DNA from: Parcubacteria group bacterium GW2011_GWA1_56_13
GTDB lineage: Bacteria; Patescibacteriota; Minisyncoccia; Phycocordibacterales; Phycocordibacteraceae
Direction of reading: 5' to 3'
DNA length: 64,000 bases
Assembly (NCBI GenBank): GCA_001004905.1
Contig: LCRY01000001.1
Location: forward strand, 10,461 to 74,460
The notes under the pieces are model-generated. The model saw only the letters and a program-made list of their open reading frames with translations. It was not told the DNA's origin and ran no database searches. Below, piece by piece: positions 4,229-63,661 of the stretch. The translations under genes were made by a program, and so were the position numbers. Each line of letters opens with the position of its first letter. Position 1 is the stretch's first letter.

Positions 4229-6393
4229 CCGTTCGCCGGCGCGCCTCATGGCGACATGCATTCCATGCGTCCGTTCTCGCTTTTTTCGGGTTCGGATTCC
4301 TTGTACTCGGGATATTGTTTGTGCTGGTCGCCGCCACTCCCGTGCTCGATATCAGCTCGTTTGCAGCCCGACAGTTGGATCAGTCTACGAAAATCTACGA
4401 CCGCACCGGACAGATCCTTTTATATGACTACAATCGGGACGCGAAACGCGAAATCGTTCCTTTGTACAATATATCGCCGAATATCATAAACGCCACGATC
4501 GCGATCGAAGATTCCAGTTTCTATGAACATGGGGGAATCCGATTCACTTCCATTATTCGTGCGATGATAGCCGATGCACTCGGCGGATCACTCTCCCAAG
4601 GAGGATCGACCATCACCCAACAGGTCGTGAAAAACACTCTTCTTACCAGCAGGAAAAGTATCGTCCGCAAACTGCATGAATGGGTGCTTGCCATCAAGCT
4701 AGAGCAGGTTTATTCCAAGGATCAGATCCTCGAAGCGTACCTCAACAACATTCCTTACGGCGGCACGCTCTACGGCGTGGAGGCGGCGGCCGAGGCCTAT
4801 TTTGGGAAAACCGCGAAGGACATCACCTCTGCCGAGGCCTCTTACCTCGCAGCCATGATCCAGGCGCCTACGTATTATTCCCCTTATGGAACGCATCAGA
4901 AAGAGTTGTCCGCCCGCAAGGACCTCGTCCTTAAGAGGATGTACACATTGGGTTTCATACAGGACATCGAATACGAGCAGGCGAGAAACGAGAAGATTTC
5001 CTTTGCTCCCGCAGGGCAGAATTCCATCATCGCCCCCCATTTCGTGTTCTATATCCTGAATCAGTTGGAAGAAAAATATGGCAAGAACATGCTTATTTCT
5101 GGGCTGAAGGTGACGACGACGCTTGACGCCGATCTTGAGACAAAAGCTGAATCGATCGTAAATCAGTACGCCCTCCAGAACGAAAAGAAGTTTAGGGCGT
5201 CGAACGCTTCCCTCGTCGCCCTCGACCCGGCGACCGGCCAGATCCTCGCGATGGTCGGTTCGCGGGATTTTTTCGATACGGCTATAGACGGTCAATATAA
5301 TGCGGCACTCGCCTCGCGTCAGCCGGGCTCCACGATGAAACCATTCATTTATTCATTGGCGCTTATGAATGGCTACACGCGCAACACGGTCGTGTTTGAC
5401 GTGCCGACACAGTTCTCCACTGCATGCCGCCCATCGGACGTGAACAATAGAACTTCTCCCTGTTATGCACCCCTTGATTACGATAATAAGTTCCGGGGCC
5501 CTATGACATTTGAAACCGCCCTCGCCCAATCCATTAATATTCCCGCTATTAAAGTCCTTTACTTGGTCGGCATACAAAACGCCATAAATCTCGCGAAGTC
5601 ATTCGGTCTCACCACACTCGGCAATCCAAACCAATACGGTCTCACGCTCGTGCTCGGCGGCGGCGAAGTCCGCCTCTTGGATCTGACGGGGGCCTTCGGT
5701 GTCTTCGCCAATGACGGCGTACTTGCCTCTCCGACCGGCATTCTTCAAGTCGATGACGCGCAAGGAAATGTGCTTGAAAAATATGATGCACATCTCTCGA
5801 GGGTCGTGCCCGAACATATTGCTCGAGATATGTCTGCGATGCTCTCTGATGCACAGGCGCGTCTACCGGAATATCCACTCGATTCACCATTGTCTTTCCC
5901 GGGCTATGATGTCGCGGTGAAGACGGGTACGACGGACGATACGCGCGATGCGTGGGTCATCGGCTATACACCGTCGGTCGCGCTCGGCGTCTGGGTGGGA
6001 AATAACGACAATACGCCGATGGTGAAATCCGTAGCTGGGTTTATCGCGGCACCAATGTGGCATGAGGCAATGGCGTATGCTCTTTCAAAATATCCGAGAT
6101 CCTATTTCGGCGAAGCGAGCCCCATTCCTGTATCTGTACCGCCTATGCTCCGAGGAAATTGGCAAATCCCTGATGCGAATGGAATTATTTTCCCTCATAG
6201 TTTGCTGTACTGGACGGATAAAAATAATCCCCAAGGACCGCCTCCTTCTAACCCGGCGCGAGATCCCCAGTTTGAGTACTGGGAGTACGGGATTTCAGCA
6301 TGGTATTACCTGCACCCCGAACTTTTCACCAATCCACCCCTTTTCGTCCCTCTTTCTTCCTCCTTCTCCTCGTCGGAGCAATCTTCTCTGTAA
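4225..6393 (+). CDS. Class A penicillin-binding protein with transglycosylase and transpeptidase domains
   Basis: N-terminal TM; GT51 motifs EDSSFYEHGGI and QGGSTITQQ; SxxK-like transpeptidase region STMKP, KTGTT; 722 aa. Confidence 0.85.
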   Translation: MTVRRRASWRHAFHASVLAFFGFGFLVLGILFVLVAATPVLDISSFAARQLDQSTKIYDRTGQILLYDYNRDAKREIVPLYNISPNIINATIAIEDSSFYEHGGIRFTSIIRAMIADALGGSLSQGGSTITQQVVKNTLLTSRKSIVRKLHEWVLAIKLEQVYSKDQILEAYLNNIPYGGTLYGVEAAAEAYFGKTAKDITSAEASYLAAMIQAPTYYSPYGTHQKELSARKDLVLKRMYTLGFIQDIEYEQARNEKISFAPAGQNSIIAPHFVFYILNQLEEKYGKNMLISGLKVTTTLDADLETKAESIVNQYALQNEKKFRASNASLVALDPATGQILAMVGSRDFFDTAIDGQYNAALASRQPGSTMKPFIYSLALMNGYTRNTVVFDVPTQFSTACRPSDVNNRTSPCYAPLDYDNKFRGPMTFETALAQSINIPAIKVLYLVGIQNAINLAKSFGLTTLGNPNQYGLTLVLGGGEVRLLDLTGAFGVFANDGVLASPTGILQVDDAQGNVLEKYDAHLSRVVPEHIARDMSAMLSDAQARLPEYPLDSPLSFPGYDVAVKTGTTDDTRDAWVIGYTPSVALGVWVGNNDNTPMVKSVAGFIAAPMWHEAMAYALSKYPRSYFGEASPIPVSVPPMLRGNWQIPDANGIIFPHSLLYWTDKNNPQGPPPSNPARDPQFEYWEYGISAWYYLHPELFTNPPLFVPLSSSFSSSEQSSL

Positions 6394-6399
6394 TAACGG

Positions 6400-7500
6400 T
6401 TATTGATTCATTGGAGAAACAAGATAAAGGAGTGAGGTATCCCCGACCCCTTTTATGATAAGCGGTCGACCTATTCCTGCGGCAAGTAATGAAATGCTTT
6501 CGGTTGTTGTGAGCGAGAGCGCTGCCAAGAGGTATCGATGATTGAAGGAAAGGTCTAGAGGGCTTCCTGAGATATTCGCGCTCAAGGTTTCCGAGGATTC
6601 GCCGATATCGAAGTTTTTCGCAAAAAAGGAGAAGTTGTTCTTTTTTGGGTTGAAACTGATTTTTACTTTCTGGAACGCATCGGAGAATATTGTCGTTCTT
6701 TTAAGAGCCGTTTCGAAATCCTTTCTAAGCACGACTGCCTCTACGATCGATTCTTTTGGTATGATTTGCCGGTAATCGGGATAGACCGCATTTGTGAGAC
6801 GGGAGACGAACATTCCTTGAGAAGCAACAAAAGCGCATTGATGCTCGTCGAATGACATGATTATATCGTCGTCTGGCAGCGCTTGCGCTATTTCGAGAGC
6901 GTTCTTTGCGGGAATAAGGAATTTACCTTGCGTTCCCTTATTGGAAAGGGGAATTTTTTTCTCTGCAAGGCGGAATGAATCGGTGGCAACGGCTGTTAGC
7001 ACCCCCCCTTCTATAGACATATAAATGCTTGATAATTCGGGGCGAACCATAGAGGAGGACGCACATGGCGCAATGGAGGTAAAAAGGTTTTTTAAGAGAA
7101 CACCAGGAAGCACCACTCTATTTTTTGGATTTTCTGGGAATGGAATGGTTGGAAAATCATCATAAGGGACCGTTTTTATCAAACTTTTGCCCGTACCGCT
7201 CATAAGTGAGACAGTGTCGCCAGTATGCTCGATAGTGATATTTCCTTCCTGGGTGAGCGTTCCTGCTATTTGTTGTAGAACAGCTGCAGGGATCGCAACG
7301 ACCCCATCGCTTATATATTTTCCTTCTAATTTTAGATCGATACCTATTTCGAGATTTGTCGCGCGCATTTTTATACCATCATGTCCGGCAATAATCAGTA
7401 TTGAAGATAAAACAGGAAGTGTCGTATTCTTCCTTTCGGCAAACCTAGACACTTTATACACAGCGTCAGAGAATTCTTTTTTTTCTATTGAAATATTCAT
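6400..7500 (-). CDS. dnaN: DNA polymerase III beta sliding clamp
   Basis: 366 aa; MNISIEKKEFSDAVYKVSRF...LPVLSSILI beta-clamp N-terminus; immediately downstream of dnaA. Confidence 0.9.
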   Translation of the reverse strand: MNISIEKKEFSDAVYKVSRFAERKNTTLPVLSSILIIAGHDGIKMRATNLEIGIDLKLEGKYISDGVVAIPAAVLQQIAGTLTQEGNITIEHTGDTVSLMSGTGKSLIKTVPYDDFPTIPFPENPKNRVVLPGVLLKNLFTSIAPCASSSMVRPELSSIYMSIEGGVLTAVATDSFRLAEKKIPLSNKGTQGKFLIPAKNALEIAQALPDDDIIMSFDEHQCAFVASQGMFVSRLTNAVYPDYRQIIPKESIVEAVVLRKDFETALKRTTIFSDAFQKVKISFNPKKNNFSFFAKNFDIGESSETLSANISGSPLDLSFNHRYLLAALSLTTTESISLLAAGIGRPLIIKGVGDTSLLYLVSPMNQ

Positions 7501-7612
7501 ACAATTCTTATTAAGGGTGTTGGTATTGGGGATATGGTAAAAAAATCAGATTTTATTTGTGCAACATTCCTTTTACTGAGTGCGCAATCTGTTGGTAATG
7601 ATGAAAAATAAC
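7501..7612. promoter_or_regulatory. AT-rich dnaA-dnaN intergenic region, candidate oriC element
   Basis: 112 bp of very AT-rich sequence. Flanked by DnaA-box TTATCCACA at 7659-7667 and GTTATCCAC (reverse) at 7697-7705 just inside the dnaA 3' end. Confidence 0.35.
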
Positions 7613-8962
7613 TCATACAAGTAGGGTACGAATATTTTGTATTTCTTTTGCCAGGTCGTTATCCACAATCACTTCCCGTTTTATCTTCTCACAGGAGTGG
7701 ATAACTGTTGTGTGATCGCGCCCACCAAGTTTTGTTCCTATGGTCGGATACGAAATGCTAAAATCCTCCCGCAAAATATACATAATGACCTGTCTCGGAC
7801 GCACCACTTCTCTTCTGCGTGTTTTTTCATAAATACTTTCTTCGTCAATACCGTAAAATGCCGCCACCTTATCTACAACATTCTTAACCGAGATATTTTT
7901 CTGGGGCCGTGTGAATGAACGAAGGGATTGACGGACTTCGACGATATCTGGAGCGACTCCTTTCACCTGCGCATGGCACACAATACTATTCACCATACCC
8001 TCCAATTCGCGTATAGAGCCGCTCATAGTGGAAGCGACATACTCGACGACCTCATCAGAAAGTATGACGCCATGGGAAGCAGCTTTCTTCCTGGCAATTG
8101 CCATGCGCGATTCAGGATCCGGTTCCCCAATATCAACCGACATACCACTTGCCAAACGGCCTTTTAAACGCTCGGCGATATCGGGGATGGCTACCGGGGC
8201 CCGATCGGAGGAAAAAATGATCTGTTTATTTGTGTCATGAAGAGCATTGAACAGATGGAATAATTCCTCTTCACTCCGCTCCTTCTTCGAAAGAAATTGG
8301 ACGTCATCCATGATGAGAAGGTCATAATGACGGTATTTATCTTTGAACCGATTCGCAGTTCCCGCCTGAACGGCATCGGTGTAATCAATAACGAACTTTT
8401 CGGAGGTGAGGTAATACACCTTACGACCAGGGTATTGTTTTTTGTATTGATTGCCGATCGCCTGGATGAGATGGGTTTTCCCGCGCCCGGTATCTCCGTA
8501 AATAAAAAGAGGATTGTATGTTATACCAGGGCGCTCGAGTGCTGCTTGTGCGGCCGCATACGCGAGATTATTGAAAGAGCCGATAACAAACGTGTCGAAT
8601 GTATATCGTGGGTTCAAATTATCACTTTTATTGATATAGAATTCATCAAGGGGAAGTTCAAGTGCTCCCCGCACGTTCCTTACCTCCTTTAATGCCTTAC
8701 GCCGTTCGTCCTTTACGATGAGATACTCGATATTACGGAACTCATAGGACACATCACGGACTATTTTGAGAAGGAGTGTGTGGAACTTCTTGAGGTACCA
8801 GTCCTTGAAGAACTGACTCGGCACACCGATGAAGATGACACCATCCTCCACCTTCACGATAAAACTGTTGCGGAACCATGTATTGAAATTTGCCGGCGAT
8901 ATCGAGAGTTCCACCTGTGTGAGAATGTATTCCCAGAGCTCTCGAGGATTCCCTTTATCCAT
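7613..8962 (-). CDS. dnaA: Chromosomal replication initiator DnaA
   Basis: 449 aa; Walker A GDTGRGKTHLIQAIGN; AAA+ and C-terminal domain IV; classic dnaA-dnaN with divergent rpmH-rnpA-yidC. Confidence 0.95.
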   Translation of the reverse strand: MDKGNPRELWEYILTQVELSISPANFNTWFRNSFIVKVEDGVIFIGVPSQFFKDWYLKKFHTLLLKIVRDVSYEFRNIEYLIVKDERRKALKEVRNVRGALELPLDEFYINKSDNLNPRYTFDTFVIGSFNNLAYAAAQAALERPGITYNPLFIYGDTGRGKTHLIQAIGNQYKKQYPGRKVYYLTSEKFVIDYTDAVQAGTANRFKDKYRHYDLLIMDDVQFLSKKERSEEELFHLFNALHDTNKQIIFSSDRAPVAIPDIAERLKGRLASGMSVDIGEPDPESRMAIARKKAASHGVILSDEVVEYVASTMSGSIRELEGMVNSIVCHAQVKGVAPDIVEVRQSLRSFTRPQKNISVKNVVDKVAAFYGIDEESIYEKTRRREVVRPRQVIMYILREDFSISYPTIGTKLGGRDHTTVIHSCEKIKREVIVDNDLAKEIQNIRTLLV

Positions 8963-9060
8963 AGTGCCTGGAGTATACTCTTATCGAGAAGGTAAAGCAC
9001 CAATGGTTTTTCCTGGGGAAACTGTTAATATCATGTGCATAACGTAATTTCACAATTTTT
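8963..9060. promoter_or_regulatory. dnaA-rpmH divergent intergenic region (promoters; alternative oriC location)
   Basis: 98 bp between the divergent dnaA and rpmH starts; contains the imperfect box tgtgcataa. Confidence 0.3.
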
Positions 9061-9203: not shown

Positions 9204-9551
9204 GTGTTTCCACGCCGAAAACGGCTTCCTCGTTCGGCTTTCCCGGCCGCCCTGTCGACCGGCCGGCGTATCTCCTCCGCGCACTTTTCTGCCATCCTCC
9301 CGAAGGAGGCGGAGGGGTATGCCGTCGTCGTTTCGAAAAAAATTGCCCGGCTTTCGGTCGTACGGCATCGTATCAAGCGGCGGGTACTTGAAGCACTTCG
9401 GGGCATTTTGCGCTCAAGGAGGGACATTCCTCCAGCGCTCATACTCTTCCCTAAACAAACGGTAGAAAGGATGGATCATAAAACCATGCAGGAGGAACTG
9501 GAAGTACTTATTTCTAGAACCTCCACTCGGCGGCACGCGGGCGACAAATAG
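9204..9551 (+). CDS. rnpA: RNase P protein component
   Basis: 115 aa basic protein; RLPRSAFPAALSTGRRISSAHFS...VVVSKKIARLSVVRHRIKRRV matches the RnpA RNR-motif region; rpmH-rnpA-yidC synteny. Confidence 0.85.
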   Translation: MFPRRKRLPRSAFPAALSTGRRISSAHFSAILPKEAEGYAVVVSKKIARLSVVRHRIKRRVLEALRGILRSRRDIPPALILFPKQTVERMDHKTMQEELEVLISRTSTRRHAGDK

Positions 9552-9565
9552 CGTACAATACTCCC

Positions 9566-10309
9566 GTGATATCGACTTTTTTTCACGCCGTTTTTTATGA
9601 CCCGATTTATAATGCGCTCGTAGCGCTCGTAGCGCTCGTTCCCGGCTCTGATGTTGGTATCGCGGTCGTTCTCGTTACCATTATCATCCGGCTGATACTG
9701 CTTCCCTTCTCATTATCGGCAGCGCGCACTCAGCGGGCGATGAAAGTTTTGGAGCCGAAACTCAAAGAACTAAAGGAGAAACACAAAGGGAATAAAGAAA
9801 AAGAAGCACTCGAAACCCTTGGGCTCTACCGTGAGGCGCGAGTGAACCCGTTTGCGAGCATCCTTATGGTGTTCATTCAAATCCCCGTTCTGCTCGCCCT
9901 CTACTGGGTTTTCTATTATGAGCCGTTGTCCACCATCAACGTAGCGCAGCTCTACTCATTCACTCCCGTTCCACACGCGGTCTCACTCCAATTCCTCGGC
10001 CTCATATCGGTCGCCGGCAAGAGTTTGGTTCTTGCGGTCCTCGCCGGTCTTACCCAATTCTTTCAGGCGCATATGGCGCTCTCCGGGACGATGAAACCGT
10101 CGGATGCGAAGGGAATTCAGAACGACTTCCAGAGAGTCATGGGGATGCAGCTGAAATATGTATTTCCGTTCATTATCGGTGTTATTTCCTACACGACCTC
10201 CGGTGCCATCGCGCTCTACTTCATCACGACCAATCTTGCTGGTGCCCTCCAGGAGTGGCATGTGCAGCGTGTCATAGCCCGGGAAACCTCAGAGCGAGTA
10301 GCCCCATAA
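9566..10309 (+). CDS. yidC: Membrane protein insertase YidC/Oxa1, short form
   Basis: 247 aa polytopic membrane protein directly after rnpA; conserved YidC core helices. Confidence 0.8.
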   Translation: MISTFFHAVFYDPIYNALVALVALVPGSDVGIAVVLVTIIIRLILLPFSLSAARTQRAMKVLEPKLKELKEKHKGNKEKEALETLGLYREARVNPFASILMVFIQIPVLLALYWVFYYEPLSTINVAQLYSFTPVPHAVSLQFLGLISVAGKSLVLAVLAGLTQFFQAHMALSGTMKPSDAKGIQNDFQRVMGMQLKYVFPFIIGVISYTTSGAIALYFITTNLAGALQEWHVQRVIARETSERVAP

Positions 10310-11512
10310 CGAACCATCATTCTTGTTGGTGAATACAAGCACGGTGTCCAGCGAATCGACCGCAGGCGCCTCGACATCGAGAGATTCCTTGGTTTCTTTA
10401 GAGAAGTCCAGAATAAACTGGGCATAACGCCCAGTGACCTGTATTTTCCATATCCTGTCGGTAAATGACACGGTGCCCCGGTACCAATCATCGGGATACC
10501 GGGAGCCCTGAGGTGGATTCATGGGGACCCCGCAATAAATGGTAGAATCGTCCGCCGTCCACACGCATTTATCCGCGATGGACGCAATGGGAAGAGGGAT
10601 CTTCTCTCCGGTCGCCACGTTCGCTAATTCCATCTGCATTGCGCCGCCGGCGTCGGCGTAACTTACGAGCAACCATTTGCCGGAGTGGCTTGCTTTGGCG
10701 ACAAGACCGTTGCGTGGCCCCGCGACACGGGAAAAATATCCAGCGCCATCGACGAGGAATGCAGCGCCCGGAAGAGTGGCGGAAGGTTTGGTGTACGCGA
10801 GATATTGGTTCTTCCCGGCGAATGCGACGCGCAATGACGACAACGGCGTCGAAAATATCTGTGAAGCATGTGTGCCGTCGGTTCGGGCAAGCGAAGCGAC
10901 CGAGCCGTTCACGCCGGAGGAGAGTGTGAGCACGCCTGTCGAGGAAACGGCGATATCGGAAAGATTCTGTGGCAGGAAAAATCCATCAGAACCGTCTGTC
11001 CGTAAGGCGTAGGTGTTGGTGGTGGAGAAATCAGCGCCTGAAAGATAACGCACGAAAACCCCGGACGCATCCGGGAGCCAGACGGCGGACTGAATGCCCG
11101 GGATGGTCCGGTTGCTTATCCGCGTCAGTGTACCTGTGCGCACGGAATATGAATACACATTGCCACTTTGTCGCTCGATGTAACTCACGATGGTTTCCCC
11201 TGTCCCGAGCGAAGTGGAGGGAGACGCAGAACTCTCGCCATCGCTGTTCACCACCATCTCGCCCGGCACCACCGGCCCGGCGCTTATTTTCACGAGTCGG
11301 GGGGGAGGGGTCGGAGAAGTGTTCGTAGTAACGGTCGTCGTTCCGAACTCTTCGACGGGAGAAGACGCACCTTGCCCTGCGATCGGCAGGTCCACACTTC
11401 CAGCAGGAGCAACGACGACGCTTGCGGTATTGACGAAAAAGTAAAAATAGGCGGCGGTTCCGGTCCCGGCCAGGACTATCACGATGGCGATGATGGTAAG
11501 TGCGCGGCGCAT
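10289..11512 (-). CDS. Hypothetical N-terminally membrane-anchored extracellular protein (possible beta-propeller)
   Basis: N-terminal TM IIAIVIVLAGTGTAAYFYFF; Thr/Pro-rich linker; no recognised motif; last gene of the minus-strand T4SS-like operon. Confidence 0.5.
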   Translation of the reverse strand: MRRALTIIAIVIVLAGTGTAAYFYFFVNTASVVVAPAGSVDLPIAGQGASSPVEEFGTTTVTTNTSPTPPPRLVKISAGPVVPGEMVVNSDGESSASPSTSLGTGETIVSYIERQSGNVYSYSVRTGTLTRISNRTIPGIQSAVWLPDASGVFVRYLSGADFSTTNTYALRTDGSDGFFLPQNLSDIAVSSTGVLTLSSGVNGSVASLARTDGTHASQIFSTPLSSLRVAFAGKNQYLAYTKPSATLPGAAFLVDGAGYFSRVAGPRNGLVAKASHSGKWLLVSYADAGGAMQMELANVATGEKIPLPIASIADKCVWTADDSTIYCGVPMNPPQGSRYPDDWYRGTVSFTDRIWKIQVTGRYAQFILDFSKETKESLDVEAPAVDSLDTVLVFTNKNDGSLWGYSL

Positions 11513-11513
11513 A

Positions 11514-12209
11514 TCAATATCTCACACACGGATTTTGCACCGGCGTGGAACCCTGACCATCAGTGCAAGAAACTTGCGTGAGATTTTCTCTACAAAGGTC
11601 GTTGAAAAATTGTCGACAACCGTTTGAGTCCCTGGCACAAAAGTAACTTTTTCCATCAACAACGGCTTCTGGTTTCAGTTGAATACAGTAAGTACCCGTT
11701 TGAGGCGATGCATAGTAATCCTGCTGAAAACCAATGATCTGGCCGTTATTTATAGCGCGCGTACTTCCTGCTCGGACCGATTCCTGTACGTACTGCGTCT
11801 GTTGGGTTTGCGGTGAGCCGGACCTGGTATCAAGCGGGGGAAGGTTAACGGAGAGATTGAGGATACTCGGGTTGATGATGGAGAAGACGAGTGCGGGAGA
11901 GAGGACAAGCACGAGGCCGAAAATGGCGTTGTATATTTTTCCCTTGCTGTCCGTGAGAATACTGACATTATCTTGGTTCGTCGCTATTCGGAGCCCTTCC
12001 CAAACGATCATGAGGACGGCAAGTACCGCGGCAAGGCCAATGAGATATTTATAAAGATTGTTGAAAAATGCCGCGAGTCCTGCCGAGTCGGCCGTCACTC
12101 CTTGGGTCAGTCCCGGAATGGGGGCGAGCGGAATGAATCCATCCGCGAATGCATGCGGCGCTACGCCGAAGAAAAAGAGCGTCACGGCGATAAATAACAT
12201 TTTTTTCAT
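11514..12209 (-). CDS. Secreted/membrane protein with VirB2/TrbC-like topology and a Cys-rich C-terminal extension
   Basis: Signal peptide MKKMLFIAVTLFFFGVAPHAFA followed by two long hydrophobic segments; six Cys in the C-terminal 80 aa; 4-nt overlap with the upstream gene. Confidence 0.35.
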   Translation of the reverse strand: MKKMLFIAVTLFFFGVAPHAFADGFIPLAPIPGLTQGVTADSAGLAAFFNNLYKYLIGLAAVLAVLMIVWEGLRIATNQDNVSILTDSKGKIYNAIFGLVLVLSPALVFSIINPSILNLSVNLPPLDTRSGSPQTQQTQYVQESVRAGSTRAINNGQIIGFQQDYYASPQTGTYCIQLKPEAVVDGKSYFCARDSNGCRQFFNDLCRENLTQVSCTDGQGSTPVQNPCVRY

Positions 12210-13201
12210 AGGCCGAAGAAATTAGTGCTCGGTTTCGCCCCGAATATAAGCGGAAGATTCGCGGCGGCGGTTGCCGCGTTACCGGAGGAAGCGGTGAGCG
12301 AGAGCGAAGCGGTTCCCCTCCCCTCGCCGGTGGGGCGTAGTGTTATCAAGTTGCCGGTTTGTGCCGCCACGCCGTTTAAAAACCACTGGAGCGTTGGCAC
12401 GCCGCCCGAGAGAGGGAACGAGAAGGGCGCCGCGTAGAACGTGGCCTCCGCACCGCTCATGGTGTAACTGCCGGCGAGAGCACGTCCGAAGCGGATGCCG
12501 AGCAGTGGATCGTTCTCGTATATGTGCACGGAAGGTTCGAGCGCGGAAAACGACAGTGAAGCGCCGCCGACGATGGTCCCGGCGGCGTTCGTTACGGTGA
12601 CGGAGATTTCGCGTGTGCGGTACTGAAGCGGCGCAGCGGCAATGATGCTTGATTTTCCGATACCGGAGGAATCCATGACACGTGCACCGTCAACCGTCCA
12701 TGCGTAGGAGTATGTCGCCGGGATGGATGTTTTCCCACTGGCGTCCCTCAGGTTTGCAATGGCGATTATTCGTACGCTCCCTTCGAGCGGCACGAAAGGC
12801 TTGCCTGGGTAAAGAGGGGGGAAGGAGGATACTGGTTCGGCAATCAGCAGCACGTCCTGAGGTTGGAGAGAGACCGTCTGATTTGAAGAAATGCTGCCCG
12901 AGGATATTGTCACCCTTACGTTCATGATACTCCCCGCTTTCCCGAGTGGAACGGTGACGGGACGCACTGCGCCTTTATATATCTCCTTGCCCGAAGCCGA
13001 GACAGTGAGCGTTGCATTTGCAAGTTCCAGCGAATCGGACAGAACCGAGAGTGTGGCGTTGCTATAAGGAGCGGGATACTGCGGGTTAACCGAGAGCGTG
13101 AAGGCATTGCCGGTTATACTCCCGAGGTTTTCAAGAGATTGCGCCGATGCCAGAAACGGTAACACAAGGGCGACGCCACAGATCGCAAAAGCGAGACGCA
13201 T
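12206..13201 (-). CDS. Hypothetical secreted protein (Ig-like or repetitive beta-rich)
   Basis: Signal peptide MRLAFAICGVALVLPFLASAQS; Ser/Thr-rich; operon with the VirB4-like gene. Confidence 0.5.
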   Translation of the reverse strand: MRLAFAICGVALVLPFLASAQSLENLGSITGNAFTLSVNPQYPAPYSNATLSVLSDSLELANATLTVSASGKEIYKGAVRPVTVPLGKAGSIMNVRVTISSGSISSNQTVSLQPQDVLLIAEPVSSFPPLYPGKPFVPLEGSVRIIAIANLRDASGKTSIPATYSYAWTVDGARVMDSSGIGKSSIIAAAPLQYRTREISVTVTNAAGTIVGGASLSFSALEPSVHIYENDPLLGIRFGRALAGSYTMSGAEATFYAAPFSFPLSGGVPTLQWFLNGVAAQTGNLITLRPTGEGRGTASLSLTASSGNAATAAANLPLIFGAKPSTNFFGL

Positions 13202-13231
13202 ACTCCCTAGTATATATCCTGCGTGAGGCGA

Positions 13232-13900
13232 CTACGCCGCCTCACGCGCTTTTTCGGGGATTCCGTATTCGCCGCCCTCGGCGTGCGCCTGTTCGTACCA
13301 CTCATCATCGGCCGCCTCTGTTTCCGCGCGGTCCTGCAAAAGCCGGGCCATCCGCCGGTTCTGTTGCTGTAGCTGGGAGGCGGCTTGTTCTTTTTCGAAT
13401 GTTTGCAGCGCCGCCTTTTCCACCCGTATCTGCGTACGGTACATTTTCCACACGACGAGAGTAATAACAGGAACGGATCCGACGATAGGGATCTCGCTTA
13501 CCAGCAAACTTCCGGCGAACCACAACGCATTTTCTTTGAATATACGTCCATTCGTGACGAGAAGTATGATCCCAACAGTAAGCCATCCGGCAAATCCTAC
13601 CGCCATCGCCATTATCACGCCGAATGGCGCGATCATTTCTATAGCGACGGCTCCCACGAGCCCCGCGCCGGCCGTGCATACAAGAGCGGCCGTCTTCGTT
13701 CCAAGTAGCCCGAATGTCCACGCCTCCAAGGTGCCGCTCGTCGTTATCGTGCAGTAGAGGGCGGCAAGCGCGGGTCCAAAAAACCAAAACATCTCGAACA
13801 TCAAGCGCAGTGCATCAAAAATGGCGGAGACCGCCAGCACGGGGGTAGCTCTTCCCCACATCATCACCTTTGGCGGAGCACTATTTCTTTTCTGCGGCAT
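13232..13900 (-). CDS. Hypothetical polytopic membrane protein with a C-terminal coiled-coil tail
   Basis: 4-5 predicted TM helices; Gln/charged-rich C-terminal tail; located between the VirB4-like and secreted genes. Confidence 0.5.
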   Translation of the reverse strand: MPQKRNSAPPKVMMWGRATPVLAVSAIFDALRLMFEMFWFFGPALAALYCTITTSGTLEAWTFGLLGTKTAALVCTAGAGLVGAVAIEMIAPFGVIMAMAVGFAGWLTVGIILLVTNGRIFKENALWFAGSLLVSEIPIVGSVPVITLVVWKMYRTQIRVEKAALQTFEKEQAASQLQQQNRRMARLLQDRAETEAADDEWYEQAHAEGGEYGIPEKAREAA

Positions 13901-14012
13901 ACCCAGCGAGGACTAAAAAGAATTGCTCCGCGTGTCTGAAATGCTGGAATCTTATGTCGTTAAGGTAGTTTTGAGACATCATAGTAAGCAAATTATGTCT
14001 GGAGCAAGAACA

Positions 14013-15842
14013 CTATGCTTTTTTGTCCTGCTGGGCATACCGCTCTTTCTCCTGCTTGATGGCGAGGAGCTGGGACGGGTCGGACGTGATTATCTGGTCC
14101 TCGGTATAGCTAGCCACTACCTTGATGGCGACGTGTTTCAGGCCTGCGAAAAAGAGCCCTTCGCCCACGCCGGCCTCGAGCAGGAGATATTTTTCCTCGT
14201 CGGTGAGGTTGAATGTCTCCTGCAGAACGTTGATGGTCGTCGGCGACTGCTTGAGGAGGAGTTGGAGCGACGAGTTCGTGAGAATGGGCCGTCCGTAGGG
14301 GCTCTTGAGGAAGTCCTCCACGTCCTGCGTAATGGTGCAGACGCCCAGGTAGTATTTGCGCCCGCGCTTGGCCACCGAGTAGAGGAAGGAAGCGGTGTCT
14401 TCGCTCTTCATCATCCACCACGCCTCGTCAATGATGAGAAGACGCTTCTTCAGTTCGTGGCGCACGGCGTTCCAGATGTAGTGCGTGATGATGTACATCG
14501 CGACCGGCTTCAATTCGTCCTCCATGTCGCGCACCGAGAAGACGGCGAATTGCTGTTTGATGTCTATATTGGTCGGCTGGTTGAGAAATCCCGCCCAGGT
14601 GCCGCGCGTATATTTCGAGAGCCGTTCGACCAAGGACTCGCTCCCTTCCATGCCGGAGAGTACCTGCTCGAAGTCGGAGAGGAGCGGCGGTTCGGCGCCG
14701 GTAAAGTCGGCGTCGCCGGTGATGTCTTTGAGCGCGTACGTCTCGCTGATGGCGCGGTCGACGATAGCGTCCTCTTCGGGCGAGAGGCCGGAAAGCATGA
14801 TACGGAAGAGCCCGACGAGCGCGATGATGTTTGACCGCAGGATGTCTTTCGGGTCCTCGTCTTCTTTGACCGCCGGAAGATCGAACGGGTTTATGTGGTG
14901 CTCGGAGGAGAGCGAAATGTGGAACGATCGGCCGCCGGTCGCCTCTGCGAGCTGGTCATATTCGCGTTCCGGATCGATGACGATGACGTCGGTGCCGAAC
15001 ATGAGGGAGCGAAGCACTTCAAGCTTCGTCGCGTAGCTCTTCCCGGACCCGGACTTTGCGAAAATGACCGAGTTGTAATTCTCAAGCGAAAAGCGGTCGA
15101 AGAGAATAAGCGAAGAATTGTGCCGGTTGATGCCGTAGAGGATGCCACGGTCGCTCGTGAGGTCGAACGAGACAAAGGGGAAGAGCGAAGAGAGCGGCGA
15201 GGAATTCAGCTTCGAGTTAACAAGGAGCTCGTCGGTTCCGAGCGGAAGGCATGAACGGAACCCCTGCTCCTGCTGGAACAGCGCCGGTTTCGTGTAAACG
15301 AGTTTTGCATCGAGGATACCTCGGATATTTCCTTCGGTTTTGTCGATCTCCTCCTTTGAGTCGCCGTAGAGCGCGAGGTAGAGCCCCACTTCAAAGAGTT
15401 TTTCCTGTGCTTGCTGGAGATTGTTGCGCAGCGTCTCCAGATCCTGATAGGCGGTATCAAGCAGGGGGTCGCGCACGAGTCCCTTCGCCTCACGCTCGTT
15501 GATCTGACTCTCTACTTCCGCAACTTTTTTCTGGAAATCACGAAGTGCCTGCGCCGTCTCGATCGGATGGATGAATACGGAAACGTCGAGCACCTTATCA
15601 AGGTTAATGACCGGCGAGAACCATCCGTCGGTGAGGAACCGCGGGTAGGAAATGGTGTAAAAAGCGCGGACGAACTTCTCCCCGAGCTCGATCTCGCGCG
15701 GGCCGATGGAAAGAGCCGTCGGAGCGATCGTATCGACGAGTTCCAAGGAACCCTGTTTGTAGATATCTTTCGGCAAGACCGGCACGACCATCTGGTCTTG
15801 CGAGTGTTCCTTCTTCCGGTTCAAAAAATCGAGGAGTGACAT
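14013..15842 (-). CDS. VirB4/TrbE/CagE-family type IV secretion ATPase (C-terminal ATPase portion)
   Basis: Walker A FAKSGSGKSY; DEAW-type Walker B LLIIDEAWWMM; 609 aa. Confidence 0.8.
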   Translation of the reverse strand: MSLLDFLNRKKEHSQDQMVVPVLPKDIYKQGSLELVDTIAPTALSIGPREIELGEKFVRAFYTISYPRFLTDGWFSPVINLDKVLDVSVFIHPIETAQALRDFQKKVAEVESQINEREAKGLVRDPLLDTAYQDLETLRNNLQQAQEKLFEVGLYLALYGDSKEEIDKTEGNIRGILDAKLVYTKPALFQQEQGFRSCLPLGTDELLVNSKLNSSPLSSLFPFVSFDLTSDRGILYGINRHNSSLILFDRFSLENYNSVIFAKSGSGKSYATKLEVLRSLMFGTDVIVIDPEREYDQLAEATGGRSFHISLSSEHHINPFDLPAVKEDEDPKDILRSNIIALVGLFRIMLSGLSPEEDAIVDRAISETYALKDITGDADFTGAEPPLLSDFEQVLSGMEGSESLVERLSKYTRGTWAGFLNQPTNIDIKQQFAVFSVRDMEDELKPVAMYIITHYIWNAVRHELKKRLLIIDEAWWMMKSEDTASFLYSVAKRGRKYYLGVCTITQDVEDFLKSPYGRPILTNSSLQLLLKQSPTTINVLQETFNLTDEEKYLLLEAGVGEGLFFAGLKHVAIKVVASYTEDQIITSDPSQLLAIKQEKERYAQQDKKA

Positions 15843-15844
15843 AA

Positions 15845-16480
15845 TCAGTTGTCGAGGCGAATGGGGTTCTCAAGCTCTCCGGGATTGAAGGAACGGTACA
15901 AGAGTTCGATGATCTCCTCGGTTCCGAGCGGAACCGCTCGTACGCCGGTGCCGACGAGCCCTTCCGCGACGAGCGAGAGCCGCTGCTCAAGTTGCGCGCG
16001 GTCCTGCTCGAACGAGGCCTCTTGGGCGGCGCTCTTTACCGATGCGCTTTCGCGCTTCAGAAAGCTGACGGTCGCTGCGGCGGACACGTGCGGCGTGTAC
16101 GGCACGATGATGTAGAACGATTTTGTCATGATATTCGCTTGGTCCGTAAACGAGCGTACGAACTCGACGTACTCGTGCAACTGGATGCGCATAAGCTCGG
16201 TCTTTTGCTCCGGCGCTTTCTCTGCAAGTAGGGCGAGATACGGGCGCAGGTCCATACGGCGCGAATTGATGACGATCTGGATGGAAAAATCGAGCGTATT
16301 GAGAAAATTCTGGAAGCCAAGGACGATGGCATGCTGTTCATCGGCGGATTTAAGGCCGAAGTTGATGGAAGAACAGATAAGTACGCCGCGATAGCCGCCG
16401 TCTTTGAGGACGATAGTTCCGTTCCGTATCTCTTTGACCGGAACGAACTGCTGCGTTGCGCCTGCCGATTTAGTCGCCAT
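15845..16480 (-). CDS. VirB4 N-terminal-domain-like protein (possibly the split N-terminal part of the adjacent VirB4)
   Basis: 211 aa. The stop (15845-15847) lies 2 nt from the ATG (15840-15842) of the VirB4 ATPase ORF in a different frame. Combined 820 aa matches a full-length VirB4. Confidence 0.5.
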   Translation of the reverse strand: MATKSAGATQQFVPVKEIRNGTIVLKDGGYRGVLICSSINFGLKSADEQHAIVLGFQNFLNTLDFSIQIVINSRRMDLRPYLALLAEKAPEQKTELMRIQLHEYVEFVRSFTDQANIMTKSFYIIVPYTPHVSAAATVSFLKRESASVKSAAQEASFEQDRAQLEQRLSLVAEGLVGTGVRAVPLGTEEIIELLYRSFNPGELENPIRLDN

Positions 16481-16481
16481 A

Positions 16482-16928
16482 TCAAGTATCGCGTTCAGCG
16501 GGATTCACATCTCCCTTTTTTACGTCAAGTGACCACGCGAGTTCGGAGAGTTTCCCTCGGGTGAGCTTCGGCGTGCCACGCCTGGGTAGCTGCGCCGCCT
16601 CGGCAGCCGCCGCTGCAGCGGTCGCGGCGGTATATTCCTTGACCCCCGTCTCTTTATGTTTCCAGAGGAAGAATTTCGCGCCGGTGTAATAATTGAAACC
16701 GGCCTCCAGGATCTCGATAAATGCCTTGCCGTTCACCTTATAGAATGCGAGTGCCGCGCCGAATCCTGCCACGAGGGCCGAGAGCACGATCGCGAAGATC
16801 ATCGGCAGATAAACGAAGAACACGACGCAAAGCCCCGCAGCGCCGGCGATATAGATGAATTGTTTGAGGGTCAGAGGCCCGATGATCTTGTCCTCTACCT
16901 CGATGAACTGCGGCACTTGGTACTCCAT
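16482..16928 (-). CDS. PrgI-family (VirB3-like) small membrane protein
   Basis: N-terminus MEYQVPQFIEVEDKIIGPLTLKQFIYIAGAAG matches the PrgI-family start (VP..I..EDKI.GPLT..Q.IY); two TM segments; first gene of the operon. Confidence 0.55.
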   Translation of the reverse strand: MEYQVPQFIEVEDKIIGPLTLKQFIYIAGAAGLCVVFFVYLPMIFAIVLSALVAGFGAALAFYKVNGKAFIEILEAGFNYYTGAKFFLWKHKETGVKEYTAATAAAAAAEAAQLPRRGTPKLTRGKLSELAWSLDVKKGDVNPAERDT

Positions 16929-17301: not shown

Positions 17302-17562
17302 TTATGCCCCGCTCCCCTTGATGTCTTTGGATTGTAGCGGGCTTTCTATGCCAGGGACCCACTTTGCATTGATGGTGCCGAATTTCTTTTCATATTCCCC
17401 TAGCTGATGCACGAGACTCTGCACTAGCCGCTTCATATGTTGTGGCGTGAGTGCGTACGCATGCGCCGTCTCGCCGACGCTCATGAGCAGAACGAAATTC
17501 TCCTCGGAATGCCCCGCAATAACGTTTTCGCAGAACTGTTTGGGGATTTTATTGAAATCCAT
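17302..17562 (-). CDS. DUF3467-family small protein
   Basis: 86 aa; SEENFVLLMSVGETAHAYALTPQHMKRLVQSLVHQLGEYEKKFGTI resembles the DUF3467 core. Confidence 0.55.
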   Translation of the reverse strand: MDFNKIPKQFCENVIAGHSEENFVLLMSVGETAHAYALTPQHMKRLVQSLVHQLGEYEKKFGTINAKWVPGIESPLQSKDIKGSGA

Positions 17563-21209: not shown

Positions 21210-21800
21210 ATGAACTACTCACCAAAGACATTCAAGCTCCCGAAACTCGAGGGAATTTCCGAGAAGCAGCTCAAAGTGCATCTTGCTTTGTACGAAGGAT
21301 ACGTGAAGCACGTAAATCTCATCATGGATACCATTGCCAAGCAGGGTAAGGCCGATGACGAGGGCGGGAAATATGCGACCGCGGAATTGCGCCGCCGTCT
21401 CGCGTTCGAGTTCGACGGCATGCGCATGCACGAGTACTACTTCGAACAATTCGAAGGCGAAAAAGGAGGGAGTTCGGATTCAGGACTCGGGAAGGCGGCA
21501 AAGGAAAAATACGGCAGCGGCGAGAAGTTTATTGAACACATCAAGGAAGTCGCCGGTACGCGCGGCATCGGCTGGGTCGTCGTCTATAAGGACGCGCGTG
21601 CGGATACTATCCACACCGTTTTCGTCACCGATCACGAGCTCGGCCAGCTCGCCGGGCTCCCTATCATCCTCGCGCTCGACCTGTGGGAGCACGCGTATAT
21701 GGTGGATTATGTTCCGGCCGAAAAGAAAAACTACATTGACGCTTCCCTTGCGAACGTCAATTGGAGCGTCGTCGAAAAGCGTTTCGACGAAGCCAAGTAA
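21210..21800 (+). CDS. Fe/Mn superoxide dismutase family protein
   Basis: C-terminal PIILALDLWEHAYMVDYVPAEKKNYIDASLANVNWSVVEKRF matches the SOD D.WEHAY...NW..V..R motif; N-terminal LPKLEG...YVKHVN region; overlaps the ComEC ORF 3' end convergently by about 70 nt. Confidence 0.7.
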   Translation: MNYSPKTFKLPKLEGISEKQLKVHLALYEGYVKHVNLIMDTIAKQGKADDEGGKYATAELRRRLAFEFDGMRMHEYYFEQFEGEKGGSSDSGLGKAAKEKYGSGEKFIEHIKEVAGTRGIGWVVVYKDARADTIHTVFVTDHELGQLAGLPIILALDLWEHAYMVDYVPAEKKNYIDASLANVNWSVVEKRFDEAK

Positions 21801-23263
21801 ATCAATCCGGCGTACGCAACGAGTGCAAGCCAGAACGGGAACGGCGGGAGTGAGAATGCCGCAAGCGGTAGCGCGGCGGACTCGCGCGCGATAAATAAGA
21901 GGTAAGCATTCGCAAGGTACGCGGGGAATGCGAGCACGATGCCAATGAGCGGGGCCATAGAACCGAACAGCATTCCCGCAAAGCCCGCGAGGGCGGAAGA
22001 CCCCATCGCGAGCGGGACAAACGGCATCACGAGCAGGTTTGCCGGAATGGAAACGAGCGAGAGATTGCCGGTGTCGTAGAGGAGAAGCGGCAGCACGGCG
22101 ATCTGCGCCGAAAGCGTGGTCGCCACCGCATTTTTCCAGAATGAGCTTTTCATAAACGACAAAAACGTCTCGACGATGGGAGCGAGCCAGATGAGTCCGG
22201 TAGTTGCCGCCACCGAAAGGCCGAAGCCGGGGTCAAAGACGAGGTAGAGAGGGTTCCAGAGGAGCATGAGGAACACAACGAGGAGGAGCGCCCGACCGGC
22301 CGCATAGGTGCGGCCGGTCGCGCGGGCGTAGAGCGCGATGAGCGCCATGAGCGCGGCGCGCAGCGCCGTCGCCGAGAACCCAGCGATACCCACGAACATA
22401 AGCAGGGCAAACGCTCCGGCCGCCGCGCCCCAACGCCTCGGGAGCGCAGTGAGCGCGAGCGCGGCTATCACCCACTCGGCAACGACCATGACGTTGTAGC
22501 CGGAGAGCACGATTATCTGCACGAGGCCGCTGCGGACGAAATCTTCCTTTACTTTCTCGCCCAATCCCGATTTGCCGCCGATGACGATGCCGCTGGCCAG
22601 GGATGCATGGGGCTCGGGTAATGTCGCGGCGATACCATCAAGGAACGCATGCTTTACGCGCGCAAGCGCGGCCGGAAGCGAGTACCACGGCGCTGGCGAT
22701 TCGACGCGCAGGTATGCGAAATTGAGCATAAAACGCACGCCGTCGCGCTCCAGATATTTGTCGTAGCGGAATATGCGGCCATTATCGTCGGCGAACGGTT
22801 CCGGGATGGCGAGCGTTCCCGACACGAATACTCGGTCGCCGACGGCGACGCTTGGATAGCGCGGTGCGACTGCCAGCATCGTCGTTGATTCATTCCCTTT
22901 TGAAACTCGTATTTCGACGCGCTGGTTCGCATCACGCACATCGGGGTCGCTCACCACGATGCCTTCATACGAAACTCGCTGCCCCACTTCGGCGACGAAG
23001 ACCGTCGGCAGAGGCGATTCGGAAAGCGCCATGCGCACCGCGCCGAGCGCGGCCACGAGGCAAAAAGCGATGGCGAGCGCATAAAATATATGCCGCTTGA
23101 AGTAGTAGAACGCGCCGAACACACCCGCCGCGAGCACAAAAAATACCGCCGGTTCCCATCCCGACGTGAGCGACCGTACGAACACCCCTCCCGCGAATCC
23201 TATGACAACGGCAATAAGTGCACCCACGTAAAGTATGGTAGCGCAACCTGGGTCTTGACACAT
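21731..23263 (-). CDS. comEC: DNA internalisation-related competence protein ComEC/Rec2 (DUF4131 plus Competence domain, no MBL domain)
   Basis: 510 aa polytopic; Competence-domain motifs LALTALPRRWGAAAGAFALLMFVGIAGFSATALRAALMALIALYA...LLWNPLYLV.DPGF. Confidence 0.8.
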   Translation of the reverse strand: MCQDPGCATILYVGALIAVVIGFAGGVFVRSLTSGWEPAVFFVLAAGVFGAFYYFKRHIFYALAIAFCLVAALGAVRMALSESPLPTVFVAEVGQRVSYEGIVVSDPDVRDANQRVEIRVSKGNESTTMLAVAPRYPSVAVGDRVFVSGTLAIPEPFADDNGRIFRYDKYLERDGVRFMLNFAYLRVESPAPWYSLPAALARVKHAFLDGIAATLPEPHASLASGIVIGGKSGLGEKVKEDFVRSGLVQIIVLSGYNVMVVAEWVIAALALTALPRRWGAAAGAFALLMFVGIAGFSATALRAALMALIALYARATGRTYAAGRALLLVVFLMLLWNPLYLVFDPGFGLSVAATTGLIWLAPIVETFLSFMKSSFWKNAVATTLSAQIAVLPLLLYDTGNLSLVSIPANLLVMPFVPLAMGSSALAGFAGMLFGSMAPLIGIVLAFPAYLANAYLLFIARESAALPLAAFSLPPFPFWLALVAYAGLIYLASSKRFSTTLQLTFAREASM

Positions 23264-23309
23264 TTCCCATATAAAGATAACATATCCGTTATGTTAGCCC
23301 CGGTACATT

Positions 23310-23681
23310 ATGGAATATAGCTTCTGGCAGACCCGACAAGGGGGAACGCCAGTTCTAGATGACTTACAAGCTGTAGCCCAAGCCGATGCTAACTCAGGAA
23401 AATCTTACTGGCTCCAGCTGAGCAAGGTCGAGAAATATACCTATCAGCAATTAATAAGGAAACTTCTCAAGAAGCTCAAAGGGAAGAATCCCTACAAGCT
23501 GTTTGAACTAAGATTTGCCCTGCCCCGGAAGATAGCAAGGACCTTTTGCGTCATCAGTCGTGATTCGAAATTATGGTTGTTACATCTGGTTATTAAGAAG
23601 AAAGATGGAACTAAGCGTTCTGATATAAAGATTGCTGAAGAAAGGGCAAAAATCCTAGAACAGACAATCCATTATCTGTAA
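23310..23681 (+). CDS. HigB/Gp49-family (RelE/ParE superfamily) toxin-like protein
   Basis: LFELRFALPRKIARTFCVISRDSKLWLLHLVIKKKDGTKRSDIKIAEERAKIL matches the Gp49/HigB core (ElR...yRi.yf....ivLLhgf.KK); low-GC islet. Confidence 0.6.
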   Translation: MEYSFWQTRQGGTPVLDDLQAVAQADANSGKSYWLQLSKVEKYTYQQLIRKLLKKLKGKNPYKLFELRFALPRKIARTFCVISRDSKLWLLHLVIKKKDGTKRSDIKIAEERAKILEQTIHYL

Positions 23682-23691
23682 ATGAAACAAT

Positions 23692-24138
23692 ATGAAGATA
23701 CAACACGCAAAATCGATACTGCTTGAAAATGATATGATTCGAAAATCATTTGGGAAAAATGATCTTGATAGCATCAAGATGAATGTCGGTCTGCAGATTC
23801 TTGAGCTGAGGTTAATCAAGAACCTTACTCAAAAGCAGCTTGCCAAAAAAATCGGTACTAAGCAGCCGAGTGTTGCGCGTGTTGAAAGAGGAGCTATGGC
23901 CCCTAGTTTAACGTTCCTATATAAAATAGCGGCTGCGGTTGATACGGAATTAATTCCACCTAAATTCGCAGTTGTTGAAAGGAACGAACAACTATATCAA
24001 ACGAATAATTTTCCTTCCTACCATTTCAGCAATGTGCAGAGTCAAGGAAAGCTGCAAAAAAATGCTGAAATTTCACATGTGCAACTTCCAAGTACTCGGG
24101 AGATATTCTCGTTTGATCATCAATTAGTTACACGGTAA
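23692..24138 (+). CDS. XRE-family HTH protein, putative HigA-like antitoxin
   Basis: HTH LRLIKNLTQKQLAKKIGTKQPSVARVERG; immediately downstream of the toxin-like gene; low GC. Confidence 0.6.
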   Translation: MKIQHAKSILLENDMIRKSFGKNDLDSIKMNVGLQILELRLIKNLTQKQLAKKIGTKQPSVARVERGAMAPSLTFLYKIAAAVDTELIPPKFAVVERNEQLYQTNNFPSYHFSNVQSQGKLQKNAEISHVQLPSTREIFSFDHQLVTR

Positions 24139-24149
24139 TTCTCAAAAAC

Positions 24150-24623: not shown

Positions 24624-24663
24624 CTATCACAATAGTAAAAACGCTAGAAATAATGTCAGGAAT

Positions 24664-32774: not shown

Positions 32775-32776
32775 GG

Positions 32777-52794: not shown

Positions 52795-52805
52795 TCCCGC
52801 CTTCG

Positions 52806-63658: not shown

Positions 63659-63661
63659 ATT

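Follow-up and report, generated by a model that had tools for sequence, protein, structure and literature searches.

Gene content of the cluster beside dnaA

We analyzed a window of 64,000 nucleotides from Parcubacteria group bacterium GW2011_GWA1_56_13 (contig LCRY01000001.1), in which seven co-directional minus-strand genes (10289-16928) encode components of a type IV secretion system (T4SS). All seven open reading frames (ORFs) had been listed in a preliminary description of this DNA and were found again at the same positions. From the first gene to the last, they encode a PrgI-family VirB3 homolog (148 aa, 16482-16928), a TrsD-like protein corresponding to the N-terminal domain of VirB4 (211 aa, 15845-16480), the C-terminal three quarters of a VirB4 ATPase (609 aa, 14013-15842), a small polytopic membrane protein with about four transmembrane (TM) helices and a charged C-terminal tail (222 aa, 13232-13900), an exported beta-rich protein whose signal peptide is seen as an N-terminal hydrophobic segment (331 aa, 12206-13201), a VirB2-like T4SS pilin with a signal peptide, a two-helix hairpin and a cysteine-rich tail (231 aa, 11514-12209), and a protein anchored by one N-terminal TM segment (407 aa, 10289-11512). 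The polytopic protein and the signal-peptide protein expected between VirB4 and the pilin are thus both present. The locus is a T4SS of the Patescibacteria type described in 2023-2025, a chromosomal cluster that almost all of these ultra-small bacteria have near the replication origin, and in this respect the core finding is a correct rediscovery.

The genes are closely packed, and the statement that most junctions are of 4 nt or less holds for four of the six. The PrgI and 211-aa genes are separated by 1 nt (TGA-T-ATG) and the 211-aa and 609-aa genes by 2 nt (TGA-TT-ATG), as read from the sequence; the 331-aa and pilin genes overlap by 4 nt (ATGA) and are translationally coupled, and the pilin and 407-aa genes are again 1 nt apart (TGA-T-ATG). 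The two other junctions are gaps of 112 nt (609-aa/222-aa) and 30 nt (222-aa/331-aa). A strong inverted repeat at 13220-13248 (11-bp stem with 8 GC pairs) spans the end of the 222-aa gene and this 30-nt gap; it could mark where processing or attenuation sets the ATPase genes apart from the pilin genes.

The 148-aa protein matched PrgI (PF12666) in Pfam with 38 bits for a cut-off of 27, and carries a hydrophobic hairpin at about residues 27-65. The PrgI/VirB3 assignment of the preliminary description is therefore retained, and the PrgI-like N-terminus that it quoted, MEYQVPQFIEVEDKIIGPLTLKQFIY, was found in the translation, as were the Walker A (GSGKSY) and Walker B (IIDEAWWMM) motifs of the 609-aa ORF. 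The latter belongs to a VirB4-like family, since it matched the NCBIfam model conju_CD1110 with 373 bits, above the curated cut-off of 325, over profile positions 183-733 of 752. It also matched Pfam P-loop_TraG (90 bits) and the C-terminal domain of Thermoanaerobacter VirB4 (PDB 4ag5, E 1e-41), its sole solved relative by sequence. The 211-aa ORF aligned to positions 1-166 of the CD1110-family VirB4 model (E 1.8e-7), to positions 100-236 of the Mbov_0397 VirB4 model (E 2.8e-8) and to positions 7-169 of TIGR00929, and is assigned to the precomputed Pfam family PF26593 ("TraC-like"). Because the two ORFs cover consecutive ranges of one model, they tile, as judged from these profiles, a single VirB4, in agreement with the split VirB4 initially proposed. 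The NCBIfam TrsD model gave 17 bits on the 211-aa ORF for a cut-off of 200; the name "TrsD" used here follows the profiles of Quinonero-Coronel et al. (2025; PMC12102498).

A frameshift or an assembly artefact was considered as the origin of this split and rejected, because the split is conserved: the same 2-nt junction recurs, the 211-aa protein has more than 5000 homologs (nearly all of the 120 listed are of about 211 aa), and the split also occurs on plasmids of Firmicutes. In a scan of one genome per species, which returned at least 579 VirB4 relatives and from which 80 loci with 10-kb flanks were kept, 78 loci had a TrsD-like ORF of about 210-230 aa. Also, the 211-aa sequence has an identical (100%) counterpart in Candidatus Kaiserbacteria (class Paceibacteria), assembly GCA_003531405.1.

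The 231-aa protein matched T4SS_pilin (PF18895) with 30.2 bits for a Pfam cut-off of 26.6, while its score on TrbC (PF04956), 22.6 bits, stayed under the cut-off of 27.9. Its homologs in databases are named pilin or TrbC/VirB2. Six cysteines are present, all within residues 175-228, so that the description of a VirB2/TrbC-like pilin with a cysteine-rich tail is well founded. The AlphaFold2 model (pLDDT 77) showed helices at residues 2-22 (the signal peptide), 42-77 and 82-121, followed by a small alpha/beta C-terminal domain. With 231 aa and this additional domain of about 105 aa, which is lineage-specific, the protein departs from the canonical short pilins, whose mature forms have about 70-100 aa.

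Synteny across species and the displaced VirB6 module

Across the 80 species-representative genomes, the order PrgI, TrsD-like, VirB4, small TM protein, 331-aa protein, pilin and 407-aa protein, followed by convergent yidC, then rnpA, dnaA and dnaN, was observed in essentially every locus with enough flank, an arrangement conserved far beyond chance. By tblastn of the window proteins, VirB4 was located in all 80 loci, the TrsD-like protein in 79, PrgI in 77 (directly upstream of the TrsD-like gene), the 331-aa protein in 75 and the 407-aa protein in 63, that is, in every locus with enough flank. The pilin was located in 55 loci, and in 58 when ORF calling at equivalent positions and hidden Markov models (HMMs) were added; with ORF calling and HMMs, the count for the 222-aa protein rose from 30 to 59. 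In the window, yidC (9566-10309) overlaps the 3' end of the 407-aa gene by 21 nt, and rnpA (9204-9551), dnaA (7613-8962) and dnaN (6400-7500) follow; this neighborhood is common to at least 57-59 related loci or species.

The 609-aa VirB4 is 73-93% identical across the 80 species. The median identity was 82% for VirB4, 78% for DnaA and 55% for DnaN, and in 56 of 59 loci the identity of VirB4 exceeded that of DnaA; VirB4 is the most conserved gene of the neighborhood. Such conservation argues for vertical inheritance and a strong constraint, probably by purifying selection. A recent horizontal acquisition, or a genomic island, was also considered; it was rejected on the GC profile (0.55-0.57 in the cluster, the same as in its flanks) and on synteny.

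These data bear directly on the possibility that the locus is a conjugative, DNA-exporting T4SS derived from an integrative and conjugative element (ICE) or a plasmid, whose relaxase and type IV coupling protein (T4CP) would be encoded elsewhere in the genome. Its VirB4 best matches models of conjugative-transposon and ICE VirB4, and its closest relatives outside the candidate phyla radiation are found on Firmicutes plasmids: tblastn with the TrsD-like protein retrieved 309 plasmids, mostly of Bacillus and Clostridium (24-30% identity over about 90% of the length), 103 of which are typed as conjugative. Also, T4CP homologs lie far from virB4 in many Patescibacteria (PMC12102498). However, no relaxase and no VirD4/TcpA coupling protein was detected with Pfam among the ORFs of 400 aa or longer of the 64-kb window, as the preliminary description had noted for the vicinity of the cluster, and no integrase borders the cluster. 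The position on the dnaA side is the same in at least 59 species without any GC anomaly, VirB4 is more conserved than DnaA, unlike a mobile element, and relaxases are almost always absent from Patescibacteria, as they were found in only 103 of 3,035 genomes (PMC12102498). The locus thus differs from conjugative elements of the mating-pair formation (MPF) type FATA (pCF10, pGO1, ICE type) in lacking a relaxase and a T4CP in the window, in its fixed chromosomal synteny and in its GC content equal to that of the flanks. We consider a conjugative function extremely improbable.

The products of the 222-, 331- and 407-aa genes had no significant family match in Pfam or NCBIfam, and profile searches against PDB sequences with the 331-, 407-, 211-, 343- and 561-aa families (the last two being described below) gave nothing significant and allowed no assignment to VirB8, VirB5 or VirB1. 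Position-equivalent homologs of the 222-aa protein were found by iterated HMM in 59 of 62 sequences (61 loci and the window), with conserved FD, IPxxxxxPxxT and ED motifs; many members end with Ala-Ala after a long charged tail. For the 331-aa protein, a sub-threshold Ig-like BiPBP_C match was the only one in Pfam. The 407-aa protein has a Pro/Thr-rich linker, a probable beta-propeller-like ectodomain (weak profile hint) and two invariant cysteines, C316 and C327. The 222-aa protein was examined as a candidate VirB6 and rejected, as a profile of 25 position-equivalents had no relevant PDB or Pfam match and as the protein, with about four TM helices, is too small; the distal gene presented hereafter was thus favored.

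A second set of genes lies on the plus strand at the end of the window, preceded by uvrD and ksgA. It begins with a membrane-anchored protein (343 aa, 58888-59919) with a weak match to TSP3_bac, a TSP3-like calcium-binding motif, and continues with an exported protein with strongly conserved motifs (561 aa, 59916-61601), which had no match in Pfam, NCBIfam or PDB and which is syntenic in at least 26 loci. The third gene (699 aa, 61559-63658; the annotated start is probably 61598) encodes a polytopic protein with a signal peptide, a cysteine-containing N-terminal segment, multiple TM helices and a long charged tail. This protein has no Pfam match of its own, while among its 56 orthologs (45-61% identical) 17 match Pfam TrbL/VirB6 and 3 match TrbL_4. 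With its AlphaFold2 model (pLDDT 78), the top Foldseek results in PDB were chains of R388 TrwI/VirB6 (probability 1.00, target-normalised TM-score 0.53). From its orthologs and its predicted fold, it is therefore assigned to the VirB6/TrbL family, in line with the VirB6-like gene that had been mentioned at a distance of 45 kb. The window ends within a fourth gene (63662-64000), whose first 113 codons encode the N-terminus of a conserved cytoplasmic protein related (BLASTP, E down to 2e-22) to those that 25 loci encode between VirB6 and PrgI; this family had no NCBIfam or Pfam match.

About 45 of the 80 related loci have the VirB6 set immediately 5' of PrgI in the same orientation, separated from it by one conserved cytoplasmic gene. 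Therefore, the comparison of loci indicates an ancestral arrangement in a single cluster of about 11 genes, which is split in this lineage. The split arrangement was found in the Kaiserbacteria lineage (loci L001-L022 and a few others). There, a rearrangement displaced the VirB6 half by about 45 kb onto the opposite strand, with a breakpoint between the cytoplasmic gene and PrgI, which is consistent with a single inversion; as a result, M50 and ComEC came to lie beside PrgI. This analysis shows directly what the components are, that their synteny is conserved and that the cluster is split. The preliminary description had seen a chromosomal, non-conjugative, minimal T4SS-like apparatus; the first two terms hold, but the system is not minimal, because the genes at 58888-64000 are the displaced other half of the cluster, and because the 222-, 331- and 407-aa genes are conserved. 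A tyrosine recombinase (Phage_integrase with a SAM-like N domain), probably XerC/D-like, is also encoded in the window (49207-50106, minus strand).

On the side opposite to dnaA, the cluster is flanked by an M50 peptidase, ComEC (21731-23263) and RecJ, which raises the question of a DNA-uptake machine, comparable to Helicobacter ComB or Crenarchaeota Ced, working with ComEC, RecJ and the type IV pilus (T4P) genes. The window does contain a dense set of competence and T4P genes (23-1795, 21731-23263, 25097-26890, 31557-34555 and 52713-54380), comprising two PilB-like ATPases (23-1795 and 32777-34555), PilC (31557-32774), ComEC, RecJ and a ComM-like ATPase of the Mg-chelatase family. The T4SS has neither relaxase nor T4CP in the window, its VirB4 shows weak matches to CedB and CedD, and in class ABY1 the T4SS is co-localised with comF, recG and radA (PMC12102498). 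However, these VirB4 matches reach 33.8 bits for a cut-off of 700 (CedB) and 23.8 bits for a cut-off of 600 (CedD), and no other Ced or ComB component was matched by profiles. Also, the adjacency of ComEC is derived, as ComEC is found upstream of PrgI in just 23 of 80 loci and most relatives have the VirB6 module there. In Southlakia epibionticum, T4P and ComEC are needed for competence; the T4SS is essential but comEC is dispensable, so that DNA uptake through ComEC is not what makes the T4SS essential (Wang et al., 2023, PMC10633639; 2025 FEMS review, PMC12857230). Consequently, the competence context that had been noted is real, but the role in DNA uptake that it suggested is weakened and we regard it as unlikely, whereas the other suggestion, cell-cell (host) interaction, is better supported.

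Relation to known systems and proposed function

The survey of Quinonero-Coronel et al. (2025) reported a VirB4 homolog in 2,417 of 3,035 Patescibacteria genomes, 2,407 of these proteins forming a monophyletic clade nested in MPF-FATA (PMC12102498). The T4SS parts described there are TrsD (homologous to the VirB4 N-terminus), a PrgI-type VirB3, VirB2-like pilins (PF04956, PF18895) and sometimes VirB6, and the Paceibacteria cluster adjoins dnaA, dnaN, rnpA and ksgA. Our locus shares with this Paceibacteria system the split VirB4/TrsD-like proteins, PrgI, the VirB2-like pilin, the absence of a relaxase, a T4CP that is not adjacent and the dnaA-side location, and we see no essential difference between them. 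The membership of the window VirB4 in the published clade is suggested indirectly by its Firmicutes ICE-type best profile, by its 73-93% identity to Paceibacteria VirB4s and by the genome table of the survey, in which GCA_003531405.1 carries the flag "Yes", taken here as VirB4 present. A keyword search of its main text returned no mention of a two-locus split in Kaiserbacteria or of a variable cysteine-rich pilin tail, and we saw no family assignment there for the 222-, 331-, 407-, 343- and 561-aa proteins or the cytoplasmic protein.

The only functional data come from class Saccharimonadia. In S. epibionticum, transposon sequencing (Tn-seq) showed that epibiotic growth requires the T4SS and its pilins (Wang et al., 2023; PMC10633639). 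The T4SS of strain ML1 (SEML1_0006-0019) resembles the present one in being chromosomal and of monoderm type, in having pilin genes and in lacking a recognisable relaxase. In contrast, it encodes six divergent pilins, where the window has one pilin gene, peptidase and lysozyme genes lie directly downstream of its virB4, and its cluster is contiguous whereas ours is split. Also, tubular structures that "may be T4SS pili" were reported at the interface between a Minisyncoccota parasite and its host (bioRxiv 10.64898/2026.06.21.733656).

Outside Patescibacteria, a cluster with the same core order is carried by the Pontibacillus sp. ALD_SL1 plasmid NZ_CP062975.1 (our locus L081, 351801-361354), with genes for a PF18895 pilin-like protein, a hypothetical protein, a 779-aa TrbL-like protein, a 116-aa TraL/PrgI-like protein, a 274-aa TrsD-like protein, a 621-aa CD1110-type VirB4 and an M23 hydrolase. 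Its VirB4 is 34% identical to ours over 595 aa and its TrsD-like protein 29% over 199 aa, and its pilin-like protein scores 47 bits on PF18895. Split VirB4 is likewise a feature of Firmicutes MPF-FATA systems of the pGO1 TrsD/TrsE type. The Firmicutes clusters differ from the window in being plasmid-borne, in continuing with a large M23 peptidoglycan hydrolase and in having no homologs of the 222-, 331-, 407-, 343- and 561-aa proteins, and the Pontibacillus pilin (151 aa) has no long cysteine-rich tail. As both the split VirB4 and a PF18895 pilin also occur in Firmicutes, VirB2-like pilins are not confined to Patescibacteria among monoderms, and these clusters agree with the published MPF-FATA ancestry. 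Compared with the minimised diderm T4SSs of type MPF-T (R388 Trw, Agrobacterium VirB), equivalents of VirB2, VirB3, VirB4 and VirB6 are present, the VirB6-like model superposing on TrwI. By contrast, the window system has no VirB7/9/10 outer-membrane core, no VirB11, VirD4 or VirB5 and no recognisable VirB8, its VirB4 is split, and its pilin is more than twice as long.

No relaxase or coupling protein is encoded nearby. Host contact rather than conjugation appears most likely for this system. We propose, with good confidence, that it is a T4SS of the Patescibacteria clade, located beside oriC, which most probably serves the host contact and the exchange of macromolecules that an epibiotic lifestyle requires. 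In such a mechanism, PrgI/VirB3 would hold at the membrane a VirB4 of two polypeptides, the ATPase and its TrsD-like N-domain. These proteins and the VirB6/TrbL-like channel subunit encoded 45 kb away would power the assembly of a VirB2-like pilus or conduit, whose pilin may display its variable, disulfide-rich C-terminal domain outside the cell. The 222-aa membrane protein, the 331-aa exported protein and the 407-aa protein with its anchored ectodomain would be co-transcribed, conserved accessory or envelope-spanning parts, and effectors could be exported, and/or host material imported, through the T4SS. What this proposal says on the pilus, on substrates and on transport direction draws on homology and on Saccharimonadia genetics.

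Several points weigh against this proposal. The predicted pilus depends on a PF18895 match just 3.6 bits over its threshold, and Foldseek of the pilin model against PDB was not discriminating, helical hairpins matching many unrelated proteins (among its non-significant entries, the T-pilus VirB2 ranked 9, with E 2.3, and an archaeal conjugative pilin ranked 43). VirB8/PrgL/TcpC had no Pfam, NCBIfam or PDB-profile match in any protein of the cluster, and a T4CP may be encoded elsewhere in the genome. A promoter and terminator scan returned promoter-like sites not above the shuffled expectation, so that an operon is proposed here from gene spacing and synteny. Finally, the essentiality data come from Saccharimonadia, whose cluster differs by its pilin arrays and adjacent hydrolases, and their extension to the present locus goes by analogy.

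Patescibacteria are estimated to represent about a quarter of the domain Bacteria, and their T4SS is one of a handful of machines with a demonstrated essential role in epibiotic life. The locus adds no new kind of system; the comparative results are still useful for work on Paceibacteria, which have very few cultured members. What the comparison adds is a cluster of about 11 conserved genes, among them six unannotated protein families, a VirB6 half that can move without being lost, a VirB4 under stronger constraint than DnaA, and a variable cysteine-rich pilin tail as a candidate host-specificity module.

The cysteine-rich pilin tail and other features of the window

Homologs of the pilin fell into two classes, namely full-length matches with the same tail, and matches limited to the N-terminal 55-60% (about 70% identity) with other tails and total lengths of 160-400 aa. 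The core was found by BLAST in 57 of the 58 orthologous pilins of the species set, while the tail of the window pilin (11514-11837, minus strand) had no detectable similarity to any of 64 species-level orthologs. Among the 58 orthologs, the tails measured 7-336 aa (median 149) and typically contained 5-8% cysteine, with an even and non-zero number of cysteines in 51 of them; this even count suggests a disulfide-bonded surface domain. Some of the orthologous pilins have an additional cysteine-rich insert, located after the signal peptide and before the first helix. When the tail alone was searched against 1.84 billion representative proteins, 12 hits were obtained, of which 3 were pilins and the rest giant repeat-rich proteins of surface type. 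These giant proteins were rejected as homologs of the tail, as no Pfam domain is shared and the matches look compositional. Among the papers searched, none was found to link VirB2, Patescibacteria and cysteine-rich domains. In a structure-clustering preprint, PF18895 dominates freshwater-specific clusters, which fits highly diversified pilins.

In F and T pili, the pilin termini are at the outer surface. By analogy, the C-terminal domain of the present pilin would therefore decorate the filament. We tentatively suggest, as a possibility that we hold to be doubtful, that the Paceibacteria pilin combines a conserved polymerising core with a hypervariable disulfide-bonded tail exposed along the pilus as a determinant of host recognition. 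If this were true, the type of pilin tail would predict the host range of uncultured Paceibacteria, and the tail would do in Paceibacteria what the divergent pilin arrays do in Saccharimonadia.

An external domain of this kind, hypervariable and disulfide-rich, is typical of adhesins and could also mean that the organelle serves adhesion only, VirB4 assembling a tethering pilus without any substrate translocation; the cluster indeed has no coupling protein and no recognisable effector gene. Against this, T4P for adhesion are already encoded in these genomes (genes of the window; PMC12206443), and the extreme conservation of VirB4 together with the retained VirB6 channel subunit suggests translocation. 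The conserved cytoplasmic protein encoded between VirB6 and PrgI in relatives could, moreover, be a substrate adaptor. A purely adhesive organelle is thus very unlikely in our opinion.

A peptidase with M23 and LysM domains is encoded at 54499-55647 (minus strand), next to uvrD and three genes upstream of the distal module; an M23 peptidase has a similar position near uvrD in two relatives (loci L027 and L031), and this protein is a candidate for the VirB1-type hydrolase of the cell wall in this system. An 86-aa DUF3467 protein (17302-17562, minus strand) is encoded between the M50 peptidase and the 373 nt that precede PrgI; it is kept (72-88% identical) in only 10 of the closest relatives. 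The GC profile of the window shows two dips to about 0.44. The first (6000-9000), over dnaN and dnaA, is the probable oriC region. The second (23000-25000) is a small low-GC island which, in the identical public contig (L082), carries a Gp49 (HigB-like) and HTH_3 pair, likely a toxin-antitoxin module.

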